This document shows, piece after piece, positions 7,541 to 20,634 of a stretch of DNA of 64,000 nt. The notes beneath the pieces are model-generated. The model made no database searches. It was not told where the DNA came from and worked only from the letters and a program-made list of their open reading frames with translations. The stretch is from a virus, in IMG/VR virus record IMGVR_UViG_3300005673_000003, positions 1 through 64,000 of that record. One strand, 5' to 3'. Every line of letters begins with the position of its first letter. Position 1 is the first letter of the stretch. A program made the translations under genes and the position numbers.

Positions 7541-8047
7541 ATGGTACCAGATATTATCTATTCGGGAGGCCAGACTGGGGCAGACCGGGCCGCATTGGAT
7601 GCCGCTGGATGCCTGCGGATACCGACTGGGGGATGGGCACCAAAGGGATACCGGACGGAGAACGGGAATGAGCCAATCCTTAAAGCTTATGGACTAAAGG
7701 AAACCGAGAGCCGCGAATACCCTCCCAGGACTCGCCTAAACGCTGAGCAGTCCGATGGTACTGCATGGTTCGGGAATACCAATTCTCGTGGCTATGAACT
7801 CACCCTAAGAGCTGCTCGGAGTGCAGGGAAGCATTTCATAGCTAACCCATCCCCGACAGCTCTTAGAGCTTGGGTGGAAGAGCATGGCATCAAGGTTCTC
7901 AATGTAGCTGGCAACCGGGCCAGCATGAATCCTGATGCTTACGGGCAAACGTTTGAGTGTATCTGTGCCGCATTTCGGGATGAGGTTGTTAAGCATCGAT
8001 TTGAAAACTGGGAAGCGATCGCAACTGTCAAGAAATCAATCAATTAA
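7541..8047 (+). CDS. SLOG-superfamily protein (circularly permuted YpsA / putative Mo-carrier family)
   Basis: SGGQTGADRAALDAA, GGWAPKG, YPPRTRLNAEQSDGT, VLNVAGNRAS motifs. Confidence 0.85.
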   Translation: MVPDIIYSGGQTGADRAALDAAGCLRIPTGGWAPKGYRTENGNEPILKAYGLKETESREYPPRTRLNAEQSDGTAWFGNTNSRGYELTLRAARSAGKHFIANPSPTALRAWVEEHGIKVLNVAGNRASMNPDAYGQTFECICAAFRDEVVKHRFENWEAIATVKKSIN

Positions 8048-8061
8048 TGAGGTAGGCAACT

Positions 8062-8673
8062 ATGGTGACGCTAAGCGAGTATCAAACCCTGATCAAAGGT
8101 TGGCATGATCACAACTTCCCGATTGCTCGACCAGGCAAAGCGGAACGGGTGATCTTAAAAATAGGGGAAGAGCTAGGGGAATTGAATCGAGCTTATATCA
8201 ATAAGTTCGACGGCATCAAAGGAACCAAAGCTCATTGGGTGAATAAGGCTTGCGATGCGATCGGGGACATCATCCTGGCTACTTTGGTTTACTGCAACGA
8301 GGGCGGCTACAGTATCAATGAGTGCTTAACTTTATCCTGGGATGAGCTACGGGATGAGGAGAAGCTCCGGCAGGTATGGGATGAGGAGTTAAAGGCATCA
8401 AGCGGGAGATTGCCAAGCTCACCGGAGGAGATTCTAATCAGAGCACTTTGCAGCGCTGCATCAATCGGCCATGTCTACTATGCGTTGCGGGATGACAATT
8501 GGGAAGGCTGGGCTGATGCAACCAAGCTTATGATCTTACGGCTGATCATCCTCCTGGCTCTCTACTGCCTACAAGCTGGATTCGACATTGAGCGTTGCAT
8601 TGCAGACTCCTGGGAGGAGGTTAAGGGTAGGGATTTTAGCAGGTCCAGCAGTACTGAAAATCAATCCTCCTAA
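8062..8673 (+). CDS. MazG-like all-alpha NTP pyrophosphohydrolase with a degenerate second repeat
   Basis: KIGEELGEL...DAIGDI motif; second half repeats the YC..G..I..C...SW.E segment. Confidence 0.8.
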   Translation: MVTLSEYQTLIKGWHDHNFPIARPGKAERVILKIGEELGELNRAYINKFDGIKGTKAHWVNKACDAIGDIILATLVYCNEGGYSINECLTLSWDELRDEEKLRQVWDEELKASSGRLPSSPEEILIRALCSAASIGHVYYALRDDNWEGWADATKLMILRLIILLALYCLQAGFDIERCIADSWEEVKGRDFSRSSSTENQSS

Positions 8674-8679
8674 CAGACT

Positions 8680-8720
8680 AACCCTGACTAATTGCCCATC
8701 ACACGCAATTAGTCAGGGTT
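8680..8720. terminator. 16-bp perfect inverted repeat between convergent genes
   Basis: AACCCTGACTAATTGC-N9-GCAATTAGTCAGGGTT. Confidence 0.7.
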
Positions 8721-8797
8721 CTAGAACTCCCTCTACGAGCTAACCTTCGGGCTTGATAAAAAACGCTGGACTATTTCTGGCCTATCTTAACCTTCCC

Positions 8798-8962
8798 TTA
8801 ACCTGCAATATCCAGCAGGCTTAACTGGGAGATCACTTGATAGGAGTATTCTACCGCAGTGATTCCGATTCCATGCCGCTCCAATGCTTTAATCATCCCC
8901 AGCACTGCATCATCAAAGCTCCTGGCAACCAGATAGCCTTTTTTCACCTTAGCCTCTGCCAT
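8798..8962 (-). CDS. Small protein (54 aa, MAEAKVKKGY...)
   Basis: ATG directly follows the stop of 8963-9430. Confidence 0.55.
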   Translation of the reverse strand: MAEAKVKKGYLVARSFDDAVLGMIKALERHGIGITAVEYSYQVISQLSLLDIAG

Positions 8963-9430
8963 TTAGTTTAGTAGCTGGGTTAAATGTCTGGGCCTTGCCC
9001 TTTCAGCTTTGACCTCGCCAATGTAATGCTTGCCGCGAAAATCGCATCGTAGATCCTCGGATAAGGGTACTTCAATGGATGCTCTTTTGATTTCTGCAAA
9101 CTTCACCTTAACGATGTCATGCTCTGAGAATCCGATGGGTGCAATCTTGGAATCCTCTAATTTGGTCAGTCGGATTGCCTCCTGCTTAGCGCGATCGATA
9201 TTTGCTTTGGTTGCCTTCAGTCGTAGGGAGATTCGCCGCTGCTTCCTGCCGCTACCATCCCCCATATCGAAGTAGCCGCGAAGCGATAGCCTACGGTTTT
9301 TTATATCAATCATGAACTGGGATCCGGATTGCTTCAGCTCTCTGTTTAGCTGCTGTTTGTAATCCTGTAAATAATCGATTGATTCTAGCTCAGCATCTTG
9401 GATGGCATCTGAAGCGTCCATAGAAAACAT
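8963..9430 (-). CDS. Stand-alone integrase arm-type DNA-binding-domain protein
   Basis: NRRLSLRGYF...GRKQRRISL...ANIDRAKQEAIRL resembles the N-terminal domain of cyanobacterial tyrosine integrases; no catalytic domain. Confidence 0.5.
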   Translation of the reverse strand: MFSMDASDAIQDAELESIDYLQDYKQQLNRELKQSGSQFMIDIKNRRLSLRGYFDMGDGSGRKQRRISLRLKATKANIDRAKQEAIRLTKLEDSKIAPIGFSEHDIVKVKFAEIKRASIEVPLSEDLRCDFRGKHYIGEVKAERARPRHLTQLLN

Positions 9431-9556
9431 TATTAATTTCTACAATCTTTCTTGATTCTAGATCCCGGTAATCCGCTATGCCTATACCTTTCGGGATTAT
9501 ATTCAAATCTGATGCAAGATCATTTTAGCAATCTGCGATAAGATTTAATTGCAAAG

Positions 9557-9615
9557 CAAAACCCCACTCAACTTTCCGGGCCGAATGGGGTTTTAGCTAA
9601 TCACTATCATCTTAT
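9557..9615 (-). ncRNA. Putative counter-transcribed antisense RNA over the leader of 9614
   Basis: Minus-strand TTGTCA-N18-TACACT promoter with extended TG (9651-9622) and an AAAACCCCA...TGGGGTTTT hairpin at 9557-9594. Confidence 0.5.
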
Positions 9616-10312
9616 GGAAACAGTGTACCAAAATAGCACTGCTACTGACAACAATTTTTCAAAAGAATCTCCAAAGGGATTCGGTGAAAGAGTTACGAGA
9701 TTCTATAGCCGGATAGCTGACCGGAGTGCGATCGCTGCCACCTGGCACTACATTAGGGGGCTAGATCAAAAAGGGTCAGGCTGGGCCAAGTTTTTATTAT
9801 CAGAAGCCGCTACCACTCTCAGAGTCACCGTTGCCACCATTAGAAGGCATCTGCGCGAGGGTAGGCGAGAAGGATTTATCAATTGGTCCTCGACCAAAGG
9901 CGGCATCGCTACGGCTGCTTATGCGAGTCGAGATAAAGTTTGTTGCAGGTTGGGCCTGGATGATTTTGGCGCGGTTGCCGAAGTCTATCTATCAGATCTA
10001 GCTGCTTCAAAGGAAACGGCTACTGAGTTGGAGGCGATTCGTCTTCAGCGAGGTAGCCAGGTATTAGCGAGAAAGGAGAGCAAGCGGAAGACCGTTGCTA
10101 TTCATGACATACTTAATCCCTCCCTTTATGCTCAAGCTGGCAGCGGCGATAAAGCTGAAGCCAGTTGGGGGACAAGAAGCGGCGTGCTATGGATTAGCAA
10201 TCGGTACACTTTTGTTAGCTCTGACTTTGTAGCTTATGGTGCATCTCAGGCCGGAATCGGCAAGCGGTTGGATCGGATTGACCCAATTTGGAAGTATAGG
10301 CAGGCAGTATGA
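9614..10312 (+). pseudogene. 5' part of an interrupted HTH-containing putative replication initiator
   Basis: HTH-like LSEAATTLRVTVATIRRHL; second HTH (GASQAGIGKRLDR..DRTVKRRL) is split and resumes in the same frame at 12041. Confidence 0.55.
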
Positions 10313-11664
10313 CGAGATACTATGGCGTGATTGGAAACCGTGACCACATCAAATACCAGGGGGAGAAGCGACCATTCTGGGAATTTCTGGATAGACAGCC
10401 TGACGGGTTCCTGTCGTCTCTTGCCTATCTTCCTGTACCGTTTGGCTTACCTGATATGCCGATGATTGGTGACTGTGGGGCATGGAGTTACAAGGCTGCA
10501 ATTATCCCAAAACTAGGCAAGAATTTGGTAACTCCAGAATGGGCATTGAGTCAATACCAGAACTACTTCAAGCTTGGAGATTTGGTGGTTGCGCCGGATC
10601 ATATGCTGATACCAGGAGAGGGGATTGACCTGGACGATCGCCGGAGATTCAATATTCAGTCTGCTCGTGAATTCCTGCCGATCGCAGAAGCTGCGGGATT
10701 CCGCCCGATGGCGACTGTGCATGGCATGGATCTAGAGGAGCGACTGATTAACGTTGGCAGACTCTACGAGATTGGTTATCGCCACTTCTCGTTAGGGGGT
10801 ATGGCAGCAAGAGCAAGCCAGAAGCGGATGCTGCTGGAATCCATTCAAGCTATTTCTGATAAGGTGCGATCGCTCCTCCCTGATGCATGGATTCACGTTC
10901 TAGGGCTTTCCTCCCCCGACTATTTTGCGGCATTTAATCAGATGGGGATTGATAGCTGTGATGGTTCCAGTCACTTTAAGCAGGCATTTACTGCAGGCAC
11001 ATTTTTTGCCTACACAAACGGTAAGCTGGTTAAGCATCAAGCCGCAAGGCCAACTAATGGGGAAGAAATCACCGCACCATTCTGTGAGTGTTTAGCCTGC
11101 TCCAAACTCCGGGAGGAAGGCATAGACACCCGATCCTATGGCAGCAACGAGAACAATATGGGACGGGCAGCACACAACCTCAATATGTTGATGAGGGCGC
11201 AAAAGAACGCGATCGCATCCCTCACCCTCGTCTCCTGTGTTGGGCAGAAGAAATCTAAACCATGTCCAGCGAAGGAACTCTACCAATCCGATTGGTTTCT
11301 TAAAGCCAGATCCTACATGGAGATGCAAGGGTATGACTGGCACATCATTTCTGCTAAGCATGGGCTGATTGACCGGGATGCGATCGTTGAGCCGTATGAG
11401 CAAACCTTGAATAATGCATCTGCAGGGGAGTGTCGGGAGTGGAGCGATCGCACCTTCACTCAAATCATGGAGCGACTGCCCAACGGTGGGTTGGTACGGA
11501 TATTTGCAGGCGATAAATATCGTGAGTATTTGGTGCCTCTACTTGAAAATGCCGGGTACACAGTTGAAATCCCTCTGAAGGGTTTAGGAATAGGTCAGCA
11601 ATTGCAATGGTTCAATCAAGAGATTCAGGGGAGACGGCTAACTCAGTTGTCACTCTTCCAATAG
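10309..11664 (+). CDS. dpdA: DpdA-like tRNA-guanine transglycosylase family protein fused to a DUF6884-like C-terminal domain
   Basis: TGT motifs DCGAWS, VAPDH, TVHG, LGG, HVLG, DSCDGSS, Zn site CECLAC...HNL; C-terminal SCVGQK...ELYQS...ISAKHGL...EPYEQTL; followed by a queE fragment. Confidence 0.75.
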   Translation: MTRYYGVIGNRDHIKYQGEKRPFWEFLDRQPDGFLSSLAYLPVPFGLPDMPMIGDCGAWSYKAAIIPKLGKNLVTPEWALSQYQNYFKLGDLVVAPDHMLIPGEGIDLDDRRRFNIQSAREFLPIAEAAGFRPMATVHGMDLEERLINVGRLYEIGYRHFSLGGMAARASQKRMLLESIQAISDKVRSLLPDAWIHVLGLSSPDYFAAFNQMGIDSCDGSSHFKQAFTAGTFFAYTNGKLVKHQAARPTNGEEITAPFCECLACSKLREEGIDTRSYGSNENNMGRAAHNLNMLMRAQKNAIASLTLVSCVGQKKSKPCPAKELYQSDWFLKARSYMEMQGYDWHIISAKHGLIDRDAIVEPYEQTLNNASAGECREWSDRTFTQIMERLPNGGLVRIFAGDKYREYLVPLLENAGYTVEIPLKGLGIGQQLQWFNQEIQGRRLTQLSLFQ

Positions 11665-11706
11665 TTGAAACATTCCACTCAGTACAGGGTGAGGGCTTCC
11701 ATTCCA
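11631..11706 (+). pseudogene. queE: N-terminal remnant of 7-carboxy-7-deazaguanine synthase
   Basis: TLPIVETFHSVQGEG is the canonical QueE N-terminus; truncated before the CxxxCxxC radical-SAM motif. Confidence 0.8.
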
Positions 11707-12040
11707 GATTCTCCTCAAAGGATGGCGTGAACCGGACTGTTAAATATTTGCCCTGCTCCACCCTGAAATCAAACTTCTCGGCGATCGCGGCTGGGAGCCG
11801 TTCCACTTGTTGGATAAATTCTTCACTCATACGATCCTTCTCCACGGTCAAAATGCCCTCTGCAACCGCTTCATCATAAACCCGCTCAATTTCTAATTTT
11901 CTAATTGATCCATCTCCTCACTAAGGATGTGGGCCTGTTCCCGTAGCTCTACAGCCATCTGGCAGGCTTCCTTGAGGCCATAGATTAACTCGGCCTTGGT
12001 GCCCTTATCCCACTTCTCAGGGGTAACAGCCAGTACTGAC

Positions 12041-12394
12041 CGGACGGTGAAGCGTCGGCTCTCAAATACCCAAAGAGAAAAGAAGGGCTTGCCTCCACTC
12101 GCACGCAGGCAGATTGCTCAGCAAGTAGAGCATCCAGACAGCCTTAAGCTGTACATGCAGTTCTACGAGACTCCCGGCAAGCTATTTTCAGCGGCAGGTA
12201 AGCCATTTATTGCCAGGTGCAACATCTATGATCCCTGCTATGACTTGATTTCAATGCGGTTTGCCAGAAAAGCGCTTGCTAAAAAAGCTGCCGAAAATCT
12301 TACGATCGCAAATCGGGACGCGGGGGAGGGGGGAGAGTGCCTTTTGACCCTAAGAAATCAGGATGCCTCCATACCTGAGCAGATACAGGGGTAA
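12041..12394 (+). pseudogene. 3' part of the interrupted putative replication initiator
   Basis: Same frame as 9614; begins RTVKRRLSN completing the HTH; no credible start of its own. Confidence 0.6.
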
Positions 12395-12459
12395 CTTTTG
12401 TACATGGCCTGCATCCGAAGTAGGAGCATGGAGATTTCTCTAATCTTCATAATTCTCCG

Positions 12460-12500
12460 TTGCATTCTTATTCGATGTGAGACATAATGTTGATGTAAGG
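12460..12500 (+). promoter_or_regulatory. Promoter with the conserved -10 block but a sigma70-type -35
   Basis: TTGCAT-N17-CATAAT within GAGACATAATGTTGATGTAAG. Confidence 0.7.
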
Positions 12501-12516
12501 CGATGGAGATCAATCA

Positions 12517-13711
12517 ATGACCGCTACAGCAGTAGAAAGGACTCAGCTTAAGATTAGTGCTCGTTCCAAGAAAAGCGGGAAGGGATGGGAGAGGATTGGG
12601 GTGGTTACGGTTGGAGCTAAATGCCTTGCTGATAAAGGGGTCAGCGACTTCTTTCCAGCAGGCACATGCGGACGTAAGGAAGTATTGAATATCTGCCGAC
12701 AGATGGAGAAAGATCTCAGATGCAGATCTACTGAGTACCCTTACCGGGGAATGACGGTCATGGTCGAACGAATCTAATTTCCTACAAATTAATCAATCAA
12801 TTATCCAGGAGTAAGGCAATGAAGGCGAGAACCAATAAACCTAAAGTGAAAGTAACTCATAAGTGCGATCGCGCCGATTGCAGCAATCAAACATCCAGCG
12901 AGTCGGGCTACTGCTGTCAGGAGTGCGAGGAAAAGGGTGTAAACCCGTATCTTGACGGCATAGGAGAAGCATTAACATTCAGGATCATGGCCTGGATTCC
13001 TTAGTTCAATAATCAATCAATCATCGGAGAAACTTTATCATGACTACTGCGACCCAAATTCAAGGCTTCGATACCCTGCCCGAACTGATTTCAAATCAAC
13101 CGATGGTAGGCTCTACCGAGTACTACACCTTTGTCCGCCAGCATACCTTAGAGCATCTGGAAGACCGGATGATCATAAAGGTGGAGGAGTTGATCTGGCT
13201 AGCATTGGGCCAGGGTGCGATCGCTGCCCCAACTAGAACCGCTTTGCTCAAGTTTGCAATGGATACCTACATCAACGATTTCCCCTATTACTTCCCGACT
13301 ATTCGCAATGGACGCTGGGGTTATGGGGAGATCTGGTACAAATTCGACGAGAAGGATCAGGGGGTGATCTACAAGTGGGTAGCTGCTATTCCATCCAGGG
13401 AATAGCAGCTATTAATCAATCGATTTTAAGGTAAGCAAAGGAGAAACAGCATGATAGACGATGAGATTGTATTTGGCTCACCTAATGAACCCCGATGGGA
13501 GCCTGACCCGAATGAGATGGATGTGAACTCGAATAAGTTTTATATAGGGGATATGGCAGTAGTGGTATCCACTAAAGAGCAAGGGGAGGTGATTGGAGTA
13601 TGGATGGATGAAAGTCGTCATTGCTGGCGATACCGTCTCCGAGGATTGAATCACTGCGGCGCATCCTGGTGGAAGGAGGATATGCTTAAGCGGCCATCAG
13701 AAATGAGATAA
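12517..13711 (+). other. Operon of four small CDS (12517-12777, 12819-13004 Cys-rich, 13040-13405, 13451-13711 SH3/KOW-like)
   Basis: Each has a 12-mer repeat or variant and an RBS; bounded by a promoter and a terminator. Confidence 0.75.
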
Positions 13712-13723
13712 ATGTAGACACAA

Positions 13724-13751
13724 AAAAGCCCGGTGATAGCTCCGGGCTTTT
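13724..13751. terminator. Bidirectional intrinsic terminator
   Basis: AAAAGCCCGG-N8-CCGGGCTTTT between convergent units. Confidence 0.8.
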
Positions 13752-13897
13752 GCTTGATGTTGTCCCTTACAAGCGAAGGTGTCTCGGTTAGGTCTTCTAG
13801 AGTAAATTTTGGATACTAAATTCGGTTTACTAAATAAGCGGCTTCACTCATTTGGAAGTATAGCAAAGATTGGATTCCCATCCAATATTGCTCCCTG

Positions 13898-14071
13898 CTA
13901 TCTCACTGGTTTCCCTGTGTACCAGGCAACCAGAGCGGTTGCAAATGTCGCGCCAGCATCAGCAACGGGAGCTAGTTCCGCAGGGACTAACCCGCTCTTG
14001 ACAGCTTGATTGACCAGGAAACCTAGCAGGACGATAGCTCCTGCCACATTCGTCACTTTATCTTTCATCAT
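13898..14071 (-). CDS. 57-aa two-helix membrane protein (holin-like), absent from the ORF track
   Basis: MMKDKVTNVAGAIVLLGFLVNQAV...ATFATALVAWYTGKPVR; GGAGG RBS and 12-mer at 14083. Confidence 0.65.
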   Translation of the reverse strand: MMKDKVTNVAGAIVLLGFLVNQAVKSGLVPAELAPVADAGATFATALVAWYTGKPVR

Positions 14072-14150
14072 TCCTCCGACTTAATTGATTGATTATCGCC
14101 ACTGCCAGTATAGCTGCATTGGATAGCTATCCAAGAACTTCACACAATCC

Positions 14151-16193
14151 TTAAGGATCCATCGCAACGAAGGTCAGCTCGGATTTATGCGGCTGATGGT
14201 ACCCAGATATGTAGACTGCCATCTCTGCGAAGTTATCGGCATGAAACCAGTGATCTGGTGCTCCTGGTGTTTTCGTCCATGCCCCTTCATTGGAGCGGGT
14301 AGAGGATAGGTAGTGGTAGAAGACGTTCTGCTCATCTCCTGGAGAGTAGGTTAACCCATCGGGCATACATTGCAGGTGCCTATAGATGCGATTACGAACG
14401 CAATCCAAGCCAAACGATCGGTGCAATGCGAAAACGGGCACCATTTCCCGCTGAATCTCCTGCAACCCTGTCTTGAATTTTTGCCCCTTCAAATTAACTT
14501 GATCCATCCGAAAGAATTGCCCCTTCCTCCCGTTAACGTGCGGCTCTGGGTAGATAGGGTGGGTCAAAGCAAACTCGGAGCACTTCTCATACTCCGGCTC
14601 CCCATCGCAACCAATCAGATTGACTTCCCATTTATCAATCAATTCCTGCAAGCTATCAAACCCAGCCGCTTCCCCGTACCAGACGACTTGCTTGATTGCC
14701 TTCTTCCAGCGTTGATCCCATTCATCTTTCCCGCTATTGGGAGGGAGCCACCAATGCTGAATACATACCCAGTGGAACGCTTTACCCTGGTCAATGCCCA
14801 TGACAACTAAATCTGGCTTAGAGCCAAGTAGATGCTGCTCTGGATTAACCTCTGGGTAGTAATGACGGAAAACATCAATCGGCTTCCGGCCCGAACACTT
14901 GCGTAGAGCATCCAGCTCAATCTTCCCTCCACCAATACTGACCGCAAGGCCCAACCCTTGCTGATATTGGTCGGTCGGGTCTACCGCATTAATCAAGAGC
15001 CGGATACGCTCGACTGGATTGAAGTTTGTGAAAGCCAGGGTTGGCACTCGCAATGCCACCGCATAAGGGAACGGCTTCTGATCTTTAAGTAGCTTCTGCT
15101 CGAATTCGTCTGCCGTCTCATTAAATGATCCATCCTTAAACTCGCCTTTGCAGATTACCTCCCAGCTTAAGGGGGCATCGCAATGGCTGCAGCCGATATA
15201 GGCAGTATCGATCGCTAAATCTCGCTCTTGCTGGGTATCACCATTGGGCACCCCTTGAGAGCTAAACCATTTGAGCGGCTTCCCTACCGCATCCCAAAAC
15301 GCCTTCTCTTGCACTCCATCATCACGCTGTAACCAGACGGGCTTAAGGAAGTTGCCCAATGGGTGCAGCGCTTGCTCCTGCTGGCAAGACGGGCAGACAA
15401 TATGCCATTCAAATAGTCTTCCTGATTGCTTAACCTGGGAGTCCACTACCCCTCCCTCAAATCCTGGAGTCGAGCCAAGTCTTAGCGGCTTGCTGGGGAG
15501 CTGGGTAGCCATAAAGCGCTCTCTGAAGATACCGATCGCCTTCTCGCTCCATAGCTCCACTTCATCCCCTGCCCCAATCATGCAAGGGAACGATCGCATA
15601 GATGACGGAGCTTCTGCCTTCTTATTGTTGCCGCTGCTTACTGTACTGGTGTAAAACAGGGTCAACTCGATTCCCCCTGCTGTTATTTTTCTTTGTTGAA
15701 AATCTGTATCCTTGCGTCTGGTAGCGGCAAAGCGCTCCTCTCTAAGTTTTTTGATTGGCTCGGTATAGTCAAAGCTTGGCTGAATCCGAGGATTTACAAT
15801 ATCGCGAAGTTTACCCTCCGCCTCGAATCCGAACGCGCAGGGCACCCGGATTTCAGAAATCCCAAAGGCCATAAAAGCTACCATGCATTCTGTAAACCCT
15901 CTTTGCGCGGCTTTATCAATTATTAAAGTCTCAATCCAAGGGTTTCCCACAACGCGATACATTCCGGGCATGTACGGCTCTTTCCAGGAGAGCTTAGCTC
16001 CATTACTCATCCTGAAGTGAGTCATAGCCCAATACTGAAAGTAATTGCCGCCAATGGAATACCAGCGCTTAATAGCTTCCTCCCTATATCGTAGAAGCGA
16101 TTCAGTGAAGTTCTTTTGAGCGGCCTGGATGGTGCTGGCTACCTTCCCCCAGGCGTGCGGGGTTAGTCCTTTGCTGGTTCTAAGCTGGGGCAT
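14151..16193 (-). CDS. Terminase large subunit (lambda GpA-like)
   Basis: KAAQRGFTE Walker A, GDEVE Walker B, STP motif, CPSC/CSHC Zn ribbon, GIDQG...HWFHAD nuclease. Confidence 0.9.
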   Translation of the reverse strand: MPQLRTSKGLTPHAWGKVASTIQAAQKNFTESLLRYREEAIKRWYSIGGNYFQYWAMTHFRMSNGAKLSWKEPYMPGMYRVVGNPWIETLIIDKAAQRGFTECMVAFMAFGISEIRVPCAFGFEAEGKLRDIVNPRIQPSFDYTEPIKKLREERFAATRRKDTDFQQRKITAGGIELTLFYTSTVSSGNNKKAEAPSSMRSFPCMIGAGDEVELWSEKAIGIFRERFMATQLPSKPLRLGSTPGFEGGVVDSQVKQSGRLFEWHIVCPSCQQEQALHPLGNFLKPVWLQRDDGVQEKAFWDAVGKPLKWFSSQGVPNGDTQQERDLAIDTAYIGCSHCDAPLSWEVICKGEFKDGSFNETADEFEQKLLKDQKPFPYAVALRVPTLAFTNFNPVERIRLLINAVDPTDQYQQGLGLAVSIGGGKIELDALRKCSGRKPIDVFRHYYPEVNPEQHLLGSKPDLVVMGIDQGKAFHWVCIQHWWLPPNSGKDEWDQRWKKAIKQVVWYGEAAGFDSLQELIDKWEVNLIGCDGEPEYEKCSEFALTHPIYPEPHVNGRKGQFFRMDQVNLKGQKFKTGLQEIQREMVPVFALHRSFGLDCVRNRIYRHLQCMPDGLTYSPGDEQNVFYHYLSSTRSNEGAWTKTPGAPDHWFHADNFAEMAVYISGYHQPHKSELTFVAMDP

Positions 16194-19241: not shown

Positions 19242-20545
19242 TGAGTCTCCGGGGGTTGAGGAGAACGCCCTCCCACGCCTGCGGAAGCAGGCAGAGTCTA
19301 ACTTGCATGATGAAACCTCCATGAGTTGTAGGACAAAAACTTGATATCTTCCGGTTTGGCGTTTTGGCAGAGCCGCTTACCAGTTTCCAGGGAATGCAGA
19401 CTGACGCGTCCCTTACTAGAACCGCCGATATAGACCGTTCCATACTTGGGGTACTTAGCAATGCCACCCCGCTTGAACCCCATCGATAATGTGCCGCCAT
19501 AAGGGGAGCGGATATGTCCCTTAGCGTGTTCAAGGCGGTGCAATTGCCGTCTGTGGAATCGCAGCGGAATAAACTCCATGACCGTTTGATTCTCTGGCTT
19601 AGGTTCACCACCCGCGACCAGATACGCTAGCACCCAGGAATCGACGCAATGAGCGTGAAAATCGGTAGATAGCTTATTTTTAAGCTTCTTTAATCCCAAC
19701 TCTTGACGGGTTTGATAGGTATGTTCAAACCCGTCAAACAGCTCCAGGGTTGCCAGCCTGCGGCACTCCGAATAAAACCACAGCTTCCCAACCTCCAGTG
19801 GGCTGAATGAAGTATTCCATCGTCTTGCACCCTTCCAAGTTCTAGCTTTCACATCCTCCACCGCTATGCGGGAAACAGGAAACAATTGCGCCAGGAATTT
19901 AATCAGCCGTAACTTTGCTTGCCATCTAGCTTTGGTGGAAGGAGGTAGAAATTCACCTCTGTCGTAGTTCTTTTTAGGGGAACGACAGGGTGTTTTACGG
20001 AATCTTCTAGCCCTCCGCATATTCGTGCTGACCTCCTCTGCGTCCTTGACCCAATCTACCGCATGGGACTGGATGTTGAAATAGGTATGGGCTTGAGACT
20101 TGACGGTGAACGCCTCGCGCTTGGAGCCTGGATCGACACCAATACAAATGGGTTGGAGGTGACGCGATGATGGTTCAATATTGAGTCGAATACACCATAC
20201 CCCTTTCTTCCAAAATGGAGTAGCTTTACCACTCTTAACCCACCTATCCGCCCGTTGGGGCTTAGTAGGCATTAGCGGTCGGTTATTGGAATCAAAAACT
20301 GGAACAAACTTTTGCATAGCGGTAAGCCTAAATATGTACATCCCTTCGTCTCTGACCAGCCAAACAATTCCAAATTAGGGAGGCGTTTGGTGCTTGTTAG
20401 GATGCCACTCCCACTGGTTCAGTTGTATCTCGAAGACCTAGACTAGACAACCTTTTAATTGCTTAGAACCATTAGCTTTGGTTCGATCCCGCTCGTAGAG
20501 CTGGACTATCCGCAAACCCCTAGCTTTAGCTACGGGGTGGCTGAC
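19242..20545 (-). mobile_element. Non-autonomous IS200/IS605-family IsrB (OMEGA) element
   Basis: End hairpins (GCCTGC-GGAA-GCAGGC ~19277-19292; CCCCTAGCT-TT-AGCTACGGGG ~20517-20537); TCAT on the left flank and CTGAC at the right end; no tnpA; ends ambiguous by about 4 nt (TGAG on both sides). Confidence 0.8.
19298..20341 (-). CDS. isrB: IsrB RNA-guided nickase (likely start MQKF at 20317)
   Basis: PLMP domain, RuvC-I GVDPG, RRARRFRK bridge helix, RuvC-II VEDV, RuvC-III HCVDS; ~340 aa and no HNH domain. Confidence 0.88.
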   Translation of the reverse strand: MYIFRLTAMQKFVPVFDSNNRPLMPTKPQRADRWVKSGKATPFWKKGVWCIRLNIEPSSRHLQPICIGVDPGSKREAFTVKSQAHTYFNIQSHAVDWVKDAEEVSTNMRRARRFRKTPCRSPKKNYDRGEFLPPSTKARWQAKLRLIKFLAQLFPVSRIAVEDVKARTWKGARRWNTSFSPLEVGKLWFYSECRRLATLELFDGFEHTYQTRQELGLKKLKNKLSTDFHAHCVDSWVLAYLVAGGEPKPENQTVMEFIPLRFHRRQLHRLEHAKGHIRSPYGGTLSMGFKRGGIAKYPKYGTVYIGGSSKGRVSLHSLETGKRLCQNAKPEDIKFLSYNSWRFHHAS

Positions 20546-20565: not shown

Positions 20566-20577
20566 ATTGATTATCGC

Positions 20578-20634
20578 CTTACATCATCATTATGTCTCAT
20601 GATGGGGGAAAGGCGTATCCGTATTTCTACTCAT
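20578..20634 (-). promoter_or_regulatory. Bipartite phage promoter, copy 3 (points into the omegaRNA)
   Basis: Operator 20617-20634 (imperfect), 18 nt, GAGACATAATGATGATGTAAG on the minus strand. Confidence 0.78.

Follow-up and report, generated by a model that had tools for sequence, protein, structure and literature searches.

A DpdA-like gene within a split pDU1-RepA-like gene of a large cyanophage: a probable case of recent illegitimate insertion

What cut a conserved gene of a large cyanophage in two, and is the cut reversible? The gene, which probably encodes a replication protein (Rep), lies in a 64,000-nucleotide (nt) stretch of DNA (the window) that is the first 64 kb of IMG/VR record IMGVR_UViG_3300005673_000003 (148,728 bp, rated 100% complete). 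It is interrupted by a 1,758-bp insert bounded by two copies of the pentamer TGACC and carrying a gene for a DpdA-like transglycosylase. A sequence-only reading of the window had called this a putative Rep gene split by a precisely removable cassette, and had offered three origins for it: an excisable replication switch, a microhomology capture that inactivated the gene, or an assembly chimera. The second of these fits best. In our judgment a single recent illegitimate insertion, through microhomology or staggered-break fill-in, is the probable, though far from certain, event that killed Rep and installed dpdA.

The geometry of the junctions is exact to the base. The TGACC copies lie at 10279-10283 and 12037-12041, 1,758 nt or 586 codons apart from start to start, and because the bases flanking the two copies differ, the direct repeat is exactly 5 bp long. 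The N-terminal half of the Rep gene (N-half; codons 1-222, 9614-10279, plus strand) belongs to an open reading frame (ORF), 9614-10312, that reads on past the left repeat; its product ends ...GIGKRLDRID, then nine unrelated codons, PIWKYRQAV, then the stop inside the insert at 10310-10312. The same frame resumes at 12038 as ...ASTD-RTVKRRLSN and runs, still open, to the stop at 12392-12394, which gives a C-terminal half (C-half) of 118 codons plus stop (12038-12394, plus strand). Joining 9614-10279 to 12038-12394 yields 1,023 nt and, as the sequence-only reading had predicted, a 340-amino-acid (aa) ORF with a terminal stop only, in which the second helix-turn-helix (HTH) is regained complete. 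The insert proper is 1,753 bp (10284-12036; 1,758 bp with one repeat copy), and it precisely interrupts an ORF, with the direct repeats as bounds and no target bases lost. The split is not attributable to chance; the probability that a blunt insert would match the 5-mer is about 1 in 1,000.

Relatives of the gene confirm that the two halves were one, and that they do not come from unrelated families. A protein search with the N-half against 5.8 billion cluster representatives returned the full-length homologs expected, intact proteins of 279-361 aa (P0002, at 79% identity, P0003, P0004 and P0005), which are colinear with the window across the junction with zero indels in the alignment (P0002 reads ...GIGKRMDRHERTIKRRLS...). 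A profile search of 1.84 billion representatives found 392 family members at E<=0.001, most of them 290-360 aa long with a single-stretch match spanning the junction position; none of the 392 is split at the same place. In a hidden Markov model (HMM) built from 70 family members, the N-half occupies positions 6-195 and the C-half positions 196-296, abutting exactly with no residue lost or gained, and the same HMM found no second family member (paralog) in the phage. The 2.2-kb contig that encodes P0002 (L004) is syntenic with the window, with the upstream gene, an uninterrupted Rep gene and the downstream 84-aa gene; it matches at 9294-9371, at 9617-10273 plus 12038-12391, and at 12526-12765. 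Because the homologs are colinear, the HMM halves abut, and the syntenic contig is intact, the uninterrupted gene is the ancestral form, and the insertion is specific to this phage.

The insertion also appears to be young. With P0003 and P0004 as outgroups, the N-half shows 7 unique changes in the window lineage versus 6 in P0002, and the C-half shows 4 versus 8, with no stop. The undecayed C-half points to a recent event or, less likely, to continued selection, and on these counts the insertion is most likely recent. The search of 5.8 billion cluster representatives returned no intact protein nearer than 79% identity, and tblastn found no homologs of the Rep halves in GenBank phages.

Is the split gene a Rep? 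A tblastn search of plasmids with P0002 returned the annotated RepA of Nostoc sp. PCC 7524 plasmid pNOS7524.02 (6,361 bp; 25% identity, 91% coverage, E 4e-18) as well as the sole large ORF of a 4.3-kb Calothrix plasmid, and the family HMM scores these two at E 3.5e-56 and E 5.8e-60, respectively. Judged by size and strain, pNOS7524.02 is most likely pDU1 (PMC6933252, PMC4176158), the replicon that is the basis of many cyanobacterial shuttle vectors (PMC4176158). The label given by the sequence-only reading thus holds at the level of sequence family: a Rep-type protein of a pDU1-RepA-like family is well supported by homology. This links a large unannotated family (392 representatives) to RepA of the 6.4-kb plasmid of Nostoc PCC 7524, and places pDU1-RepA-type initiators on large cyanophages.

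Structure prediction is consistent with this assignment, although the matches are weak. Pfam found only generic HTH families in P0002, at about residues 57-80 and 208-232. An AlphaFold2 model from only 4 sequences had a pLDDT (predicted local distance difference test) of 34, and the 70-sequence alignment was used instead, giving a pLDDT of 88.7 and a predicted template-modelling (TM) score of 0.87. The top ~30 Foldseek matches of this model in the PDB are all iteron-type initiators, including pi (2nra, E 5.9e-4), Rep (8ac8) and RepE54 (1rep), at E 6e-4 to 3e-2 and TM 0.25-0.36; VIA-align backs only a generic winged helix over residues 30-110 (Z up to 10.7). No iterons or other tandem or clustered direct repeats were found near the gene, in 8000-14200.

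The model places the break at a sensitive point. It falls between E222 and R223 of P0002, where helix 222-229 begins; this is the recognition helix of the second HTH, and the C-half in the window opens with it (RTVKRRLS). What remains in the truncated 232-aa product is the first winged helix, the long helix and, of the second HTH, helix 2; the recognition helix is lost with all that follows. In RepE and pi the iteron is bound by the second winged helix. Because this helix would be lost, the truncated Rep is probably dead as an initiator.

As a separate observation, pDU1-RepA-like proteins (P0127-P0273, and those encoded on L003 and L004) form a large unannotated family, and the 54-kb contig L003 bears its member beside RuvC and RusA genes; this suggests that plasmid-type initiators are common on cyanophages or phage-plasmids.

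What the insert brings in is one intact gene followed by debris. The intact gene (10309-11664, plus strand) encodes a 451-aa DpdA-like transglycosylase (TGT) fused to DUF6884 (Pfam PF01702, E 1.6e-6; PF21818, E 8.9e-45). Its protein carries CVGQK and ISAKHG, which correspond to the CxxxK and LSAxxG-type motifs of DUF6884, a YaaA-like putative DNA-binding, base-flipping domain (PMC11701544). The fusion family has 347 relatives, the closest three being 83%, 77% and 75% identical over the full length. Their contexts differ, one gene following DnaJ, one QueC-QueE and one an intein-bearing DnaB. DNA similarity to these closest loci ends at the coding sequence. Contig L012 (3221-5845) shows a DnaB gene with a LAGLIDADG intein directly upstream of a dpdA-DUF6884 gene.

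On the left, dpdA is preceded by a 25-nt leader (10284-10312, plus strand) that is also read as the 9-codon foreign tail of Rep, PIWKYRQAV, whose TGA overlaps the dpdA ATG (ATGA). The sequence-only reading took this stretch for the tail of another gene overlapping the dpdA start, which is not demonstrable; the 25 nt may be a plain dpdA leader. The ATGA overlap is a consequence of the reading frame, since close dpdA relatives likewise start ATGAC (Met-Thr).

On the right, the claim that the cassette ends in gene fragments stands in part. A 31-codon 5' stub of queE (...TLPIVETFHSVQGEGF; 11607-11699, plus strand) overlaps the 3' end of dpdA and is real: 14/18 residues are identical to the N-terminus of QueE on contig L010 (tblastx E 3e-6), and the resemblance runs up to ...QGEGF, at about 11699, beyond which it is gone. 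The remaining ~335 bp (11700-12036) hold orphan antisense ORF debris, two minus-strand frames at 11705-11917 and 11896-12036, cut at both ends, and here the fragments have no homologs to confirm them. Relatives of 11705-11917 were found neither in phages nor in the 5.8-billion-cluster protein, viral, metagenome or genome collections, and plasmids gave one chance-level match only (E 0.7). A gene followed by the debris of one or more earlier rearrangements makes up the insert, which is no tidy element. It is single-copy in the 148.7-kb genome and ordinary in GC content, with trinucleotide composition at the 74th percentile. A promoter and terminator scan gave background level only. The record holds 68 HIP1 sites (GCGATCGC). 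With 4 in 1,753 nt, the insert has them at the highest density in the genome, a level that 1.4% of the windows compared attain, many of these windows overlapping the insert itself; a foreign donor richer in HIP1 is weakly suggested.

The rest of the genome bears on what the insertion would cost and bring. The phage has its own DnaB gene at 88,096-89,490; Pfam matched none of the ORFs upstream of it, and a family search found no DNA_pol_A in the phage. A resident 7-deazaguanine cluster (genome 120,479-128,805) holds a stand-alone DUF6884 gene, DpdA-like genes (one at 122,927-123,652), QueC, QueD and QueE; a 448-aa RRXRR (IscB-like) ORF overlaps the upstream end of the resident queE. The stand-alone DUF6884 protein is 35% identical to the C-terminal domain of the insert protein, and the DpdA-DUF6884 of the insert is an extra transglycosylase of a lineage that differs from the resident cluster. 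Because the phage has its own DnaB and a full 7-deazaguanine cluster, a pDU1-type Rep is plausibly dispensable for lytic growth.

These observations lead us to favor the following course of events. In one event, a pDU1-RepA-type initiator gene would have received some 1.75 kb of foreign DNA, from a cyanophage or a cyanobacterium. The donor piece would be an arbitrary chunk of another genome that starts 25 nt before dpdA-DUF6884, runs 31 codons into queE, and continues into antisense debris. It could have entered at TGACC where 5 bp of microhomology allowed a single crossover or a double template switch, or where a staggered break of 5 nt was filled in, leaving one TGACC on each side and the target intact in length. 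Rep would thereby have been broken off after helix 2 of its second HTH, just ahead of the recognition helix, and have gained nine foreign codons, and dpdA would now sit behind the Rep promoter and start. Because the dpdA ATG overlaps the stop of the truncated Rep, dpdA is probably translated by coupling from the Rep start. Loss of Rep would be tolerable to a phage with its own DnaB and a 7-deazaguanine pathway elsewhere, and the extra DNA 7-deazaguanine transglycosylase may be useful. Under this model excision is not programmed, and we would be seeing a foreign accessory gene (a 'moron') caught soon after its acquisition. The arbitrary breakpoints of the insert content, its single copy and the differing contexts of the closest dpdA loci all favor this course, as do the lack of terminal inverted repeats and of structured ends and the negative searches of the phage for recombinases and Y1 TnpA.

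Several points weigh against it. A 5-bp flanking repeat without loss of target is also the signature of a transposase, and homology of 5 bp rarely suffices for recombination. The donor was not found in the collections searched, so that the queE stub and the orphan debris are what speak for an arbitrary chunk. One study, seen through contigs, leaves a minor excised allele conceivable, and an undamaged C-half is also what ongoing selection for a restorable gene would leave. The inactivity of Rep and the expression of dpdA are likewise our deductions.

Could the insert instead be a non-autonomous transposable cassette, moved in trans by a transposase of host or co-infecting origin, with TGACC as the target-site duplication? 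The exact 5-bp duplication with zero target loss would be explained, and mobile DNA abounds in the genome, which has three IscB/IsrB elements. However, the insert has no terminal inverted repeats and no second copy, no conserved ends were found beside related dpdA genes, and its content is a gene plus truncated gene debris instead of a defined element. The sequence-only reading was right that the cassette has no recombinase: the sole large ORF is the TGT-DUF6884 fusion, and the small ORFs match no family. Searches of the whole phage for Y1 TnpA (PF01797), serine (PF00239) and tyrosine (PF00589) recombinases were also negative, with positive controls recovered each time. We regard a trans-moved cassette as unlikely, if still worth keeping in mind.

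A programmed interruption element is the explanation that would make the split reversible. Here a site-specific recombinase of the host would excise the insert at TGACC and restore Rep, as a switch of replication or lifestyle comparable to the fdxN, nifD and skin elements. Removal would indeed be precise, in-frame and scarless, the C-half is undecayed, and the fdxN element also uses a 5-bp core. Yet neither the insert nor the phage encodes a recombinase of the families searched, and the insert ends have neither symmetry nor structure. On both strands, single-stranded DNA folding of the ends is no better than that of shuffles (z -0.2 to +1.7), with no subterminal hairpins, and 11900-12045, at the 3' end, holds no imperfect palindrome or stable fold that would resemble the attC hairpin of integron gene cassettes.

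Nor did the excised form appear where we looked. Our checks of alleles and junctions rest on Logan contigs of four 2015 runs from a single study, together with JGI and ENA assemblies; all sequencing runs that hold the phage come from this one 2015 bioreactor-sludge study. No joint across the insert was present in the contigs of the four runs, although contigs drop rare variants. Outside the record, the empty-site junction (GGATCGGAT joined to TGACCGGACG) had no exact match in viral, metagenome or genome contigs, and neither the circle junction (...CCAGTAC-TGACC-CAATTTGG) nor the occupied right junction had one in viral contigs. The phage is abundant (42x) and its complete assembly carries the interruption; the absence of an intact near-identical protein from the protein search, and an insert that is debris-laden and unique to this phage, speak against programmed excision. 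We consider the excisable replication switch of the sequence-only reading improbable and without support. A bolder version, in which a recombinase-less and promoterless DNA-modification cassette integrates and excises through host machinery at a 5-bp core and reversibly toggles Rep, switching the phage between plasmid-like carriage and lytic replication, with dpdA on the Rep signals, we hold to be highly improbable. Were the insert reversible, it would represent a phage lifestyle switch of a new kind, but none of the findings points to reversibility.

Alternatively, both halves might be translated and reassemble into a working Rep, a gene in pieces like the NrdA of phage Aeh1, which is split by mobE. 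Both halves are open, and a gene caller took GTG 12047 as the start of a 115-aa C-piece. However, the break does not follow a domain boundary but parts helix 2 of an HTH from its recognition helix; ahead of the C-half, neither a promoter nor a ribosome-binding site is convincing, and no other member of the family is so split. Reassembly therefore has only a slender chance of being the explanation.

An IS200/IS605-type cargo element, moved by TnpA through 'peel and paste' and related to the IsrB elements of the phage, was suggested by the right insert end, CTGAC. This is literally the right end of the IsrB element at 19242-20545, as the sequence-only reading had noticed, but ...GTTGAA closes the second IsrB element (about 66358-67803), and beyond CTGAC the insert ends have nothing in common with those of the elements; the match is a coincidence. 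With no subterminal hairpins, no Y1 TnpA in the genome (one from the host is possible) and a left flank that differs from the TCAT target of the IsrB element, mobilization of this type has a very slight probability. Finally, an assembly chimera or a self-splicing intron would account for the precise removability and nothing beyond, and both are practically negligible: the left junction is found in several independent assemblies (contigs of other samples from JGI, ENA and Logan), three long contigs hold both junctions (the two full-length assemblies, of 148,728 and 148,578 bp, and at 42x a Logan contig of 128,760 bp), and Rfam gave no match to the insert even at E 10, while no register within the repeat satisfies the group I (U/...G) or group II (GUGYG...AY) boundaries.

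A few features of the assemblies and of the phage deserve mention in their own right. Of the four Logan runs, only the deep run X1, probably the source, has a contig that bridges the right junction. Contigs L017, L018 and L019 end in Nextera adapter at window positions 7834 and 10373, alike in several assemblies; with the adapter recurring at these two sites, the ends of contigs in these data do not mark biological breakpoints. A k=31 graph fork might be read into the right junction, where one contig of X2 stops exactly at 12036 and one of X3 begins at 12067 (12037+30), but we gave these ends no weight because the contigs of the study break at the adapter sites and depth is 3-6x. L017 was likewise rejected as a 0.7% divergent strain, its differences being nearly all Ns and adapter ends.

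The 148,728-bp record has a 150-nt repeat shared by both ends, a gpA-type large terminase gene at 14151-16193, an IsrB gene at 19298-20341, and a 4,281-aa ORF that the initial sequence reading named a candidate tape-measure gene. A 27-nt motif (TGAGACATAATGNTGATGTAAGGCGAT) occurs at window 12478-12504 (plus strand), window 20573-20599 (minus strand) and genome 119,685 (plus strand), the first two copies being identical at 26/27 positions. Each copy reads as a start followed by M-R-H-N-(D/V)-D-V; one is a 9-codon mini-ORF beside an IsrB element and one the start of ORF 119683-120501, and the motif may be a shared leader or regulatory module. The 12-mer AATYRATYRATT has 121 exact copies in the 148.7 kb and none within 9373-12791, which spans the Rep gene and the insert.

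How does this locus compare with known systems? The split gene is in the same sequence family as RepA of Nostoc PCC 7524, and a tandem winged-helix fold is predicted for it whose best Foldseek matches, weak as they are, are pi, Rep and RepE. In contrast to a plasmid RepA, it sits on a 149-kb tailed phage with no iterons seen nearby, and its role in replication is predicted from homology. The Anabaena fdxN (XisF), nifD (XisA) and hupL (XisC) elements and the B. subtilis skin element are 10-60 kb long, encode their own recombinase and are known to excise. The insert resembles them in interrupting an ORF between short direct repeats, such that precise removal would restore the gene; it differs in its length of 1.76 kb, in the absence of a recombinase from insert and phage, and in that the excised form was not found. 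With IS200/IS605 elements and PATEs, their non-autonomous derivatives, it shares a precise insertion next to a short motif, in a genome that holds related IsrB/IscB elements; it lacks their end hairpins and TnpA, is present in a single copy, and has ends unrelated to those of the resident elements. Like nrdA-a/mobE/nrdA-b of Aeromonas phage Aeh1, it splits a phage gene and leaves both halves open, but it contains no homing endonuclease, and the break falls inside a DNA-binding helix-turn-helix.

The closest likeness is to phage morons, the mosaic joints of which arise by illegitimate recombination in the Hendrix-type model. As in these, a foreign accessory gene is joined at a few bases of microhomology, with no dedicated machinery, and the cargo is of a kind useful against host defence. 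Unlike in typical morons, the joint interrupts a conserved gene in its middle instead of falling between genes, and the same 5-mer stands on both sides; for this reason we appear to be seeing the event before it was tidied by selection. The case is clean and instructive, although not a new kind of system. It offers a before-and-after view of the pickup of an accessory gene, with the intact gene present in a syntenic relative and the insert ends known to the base, the cargo intact and hooked to the expression signals of the Rep gene, and the broken gene not yet decayed.

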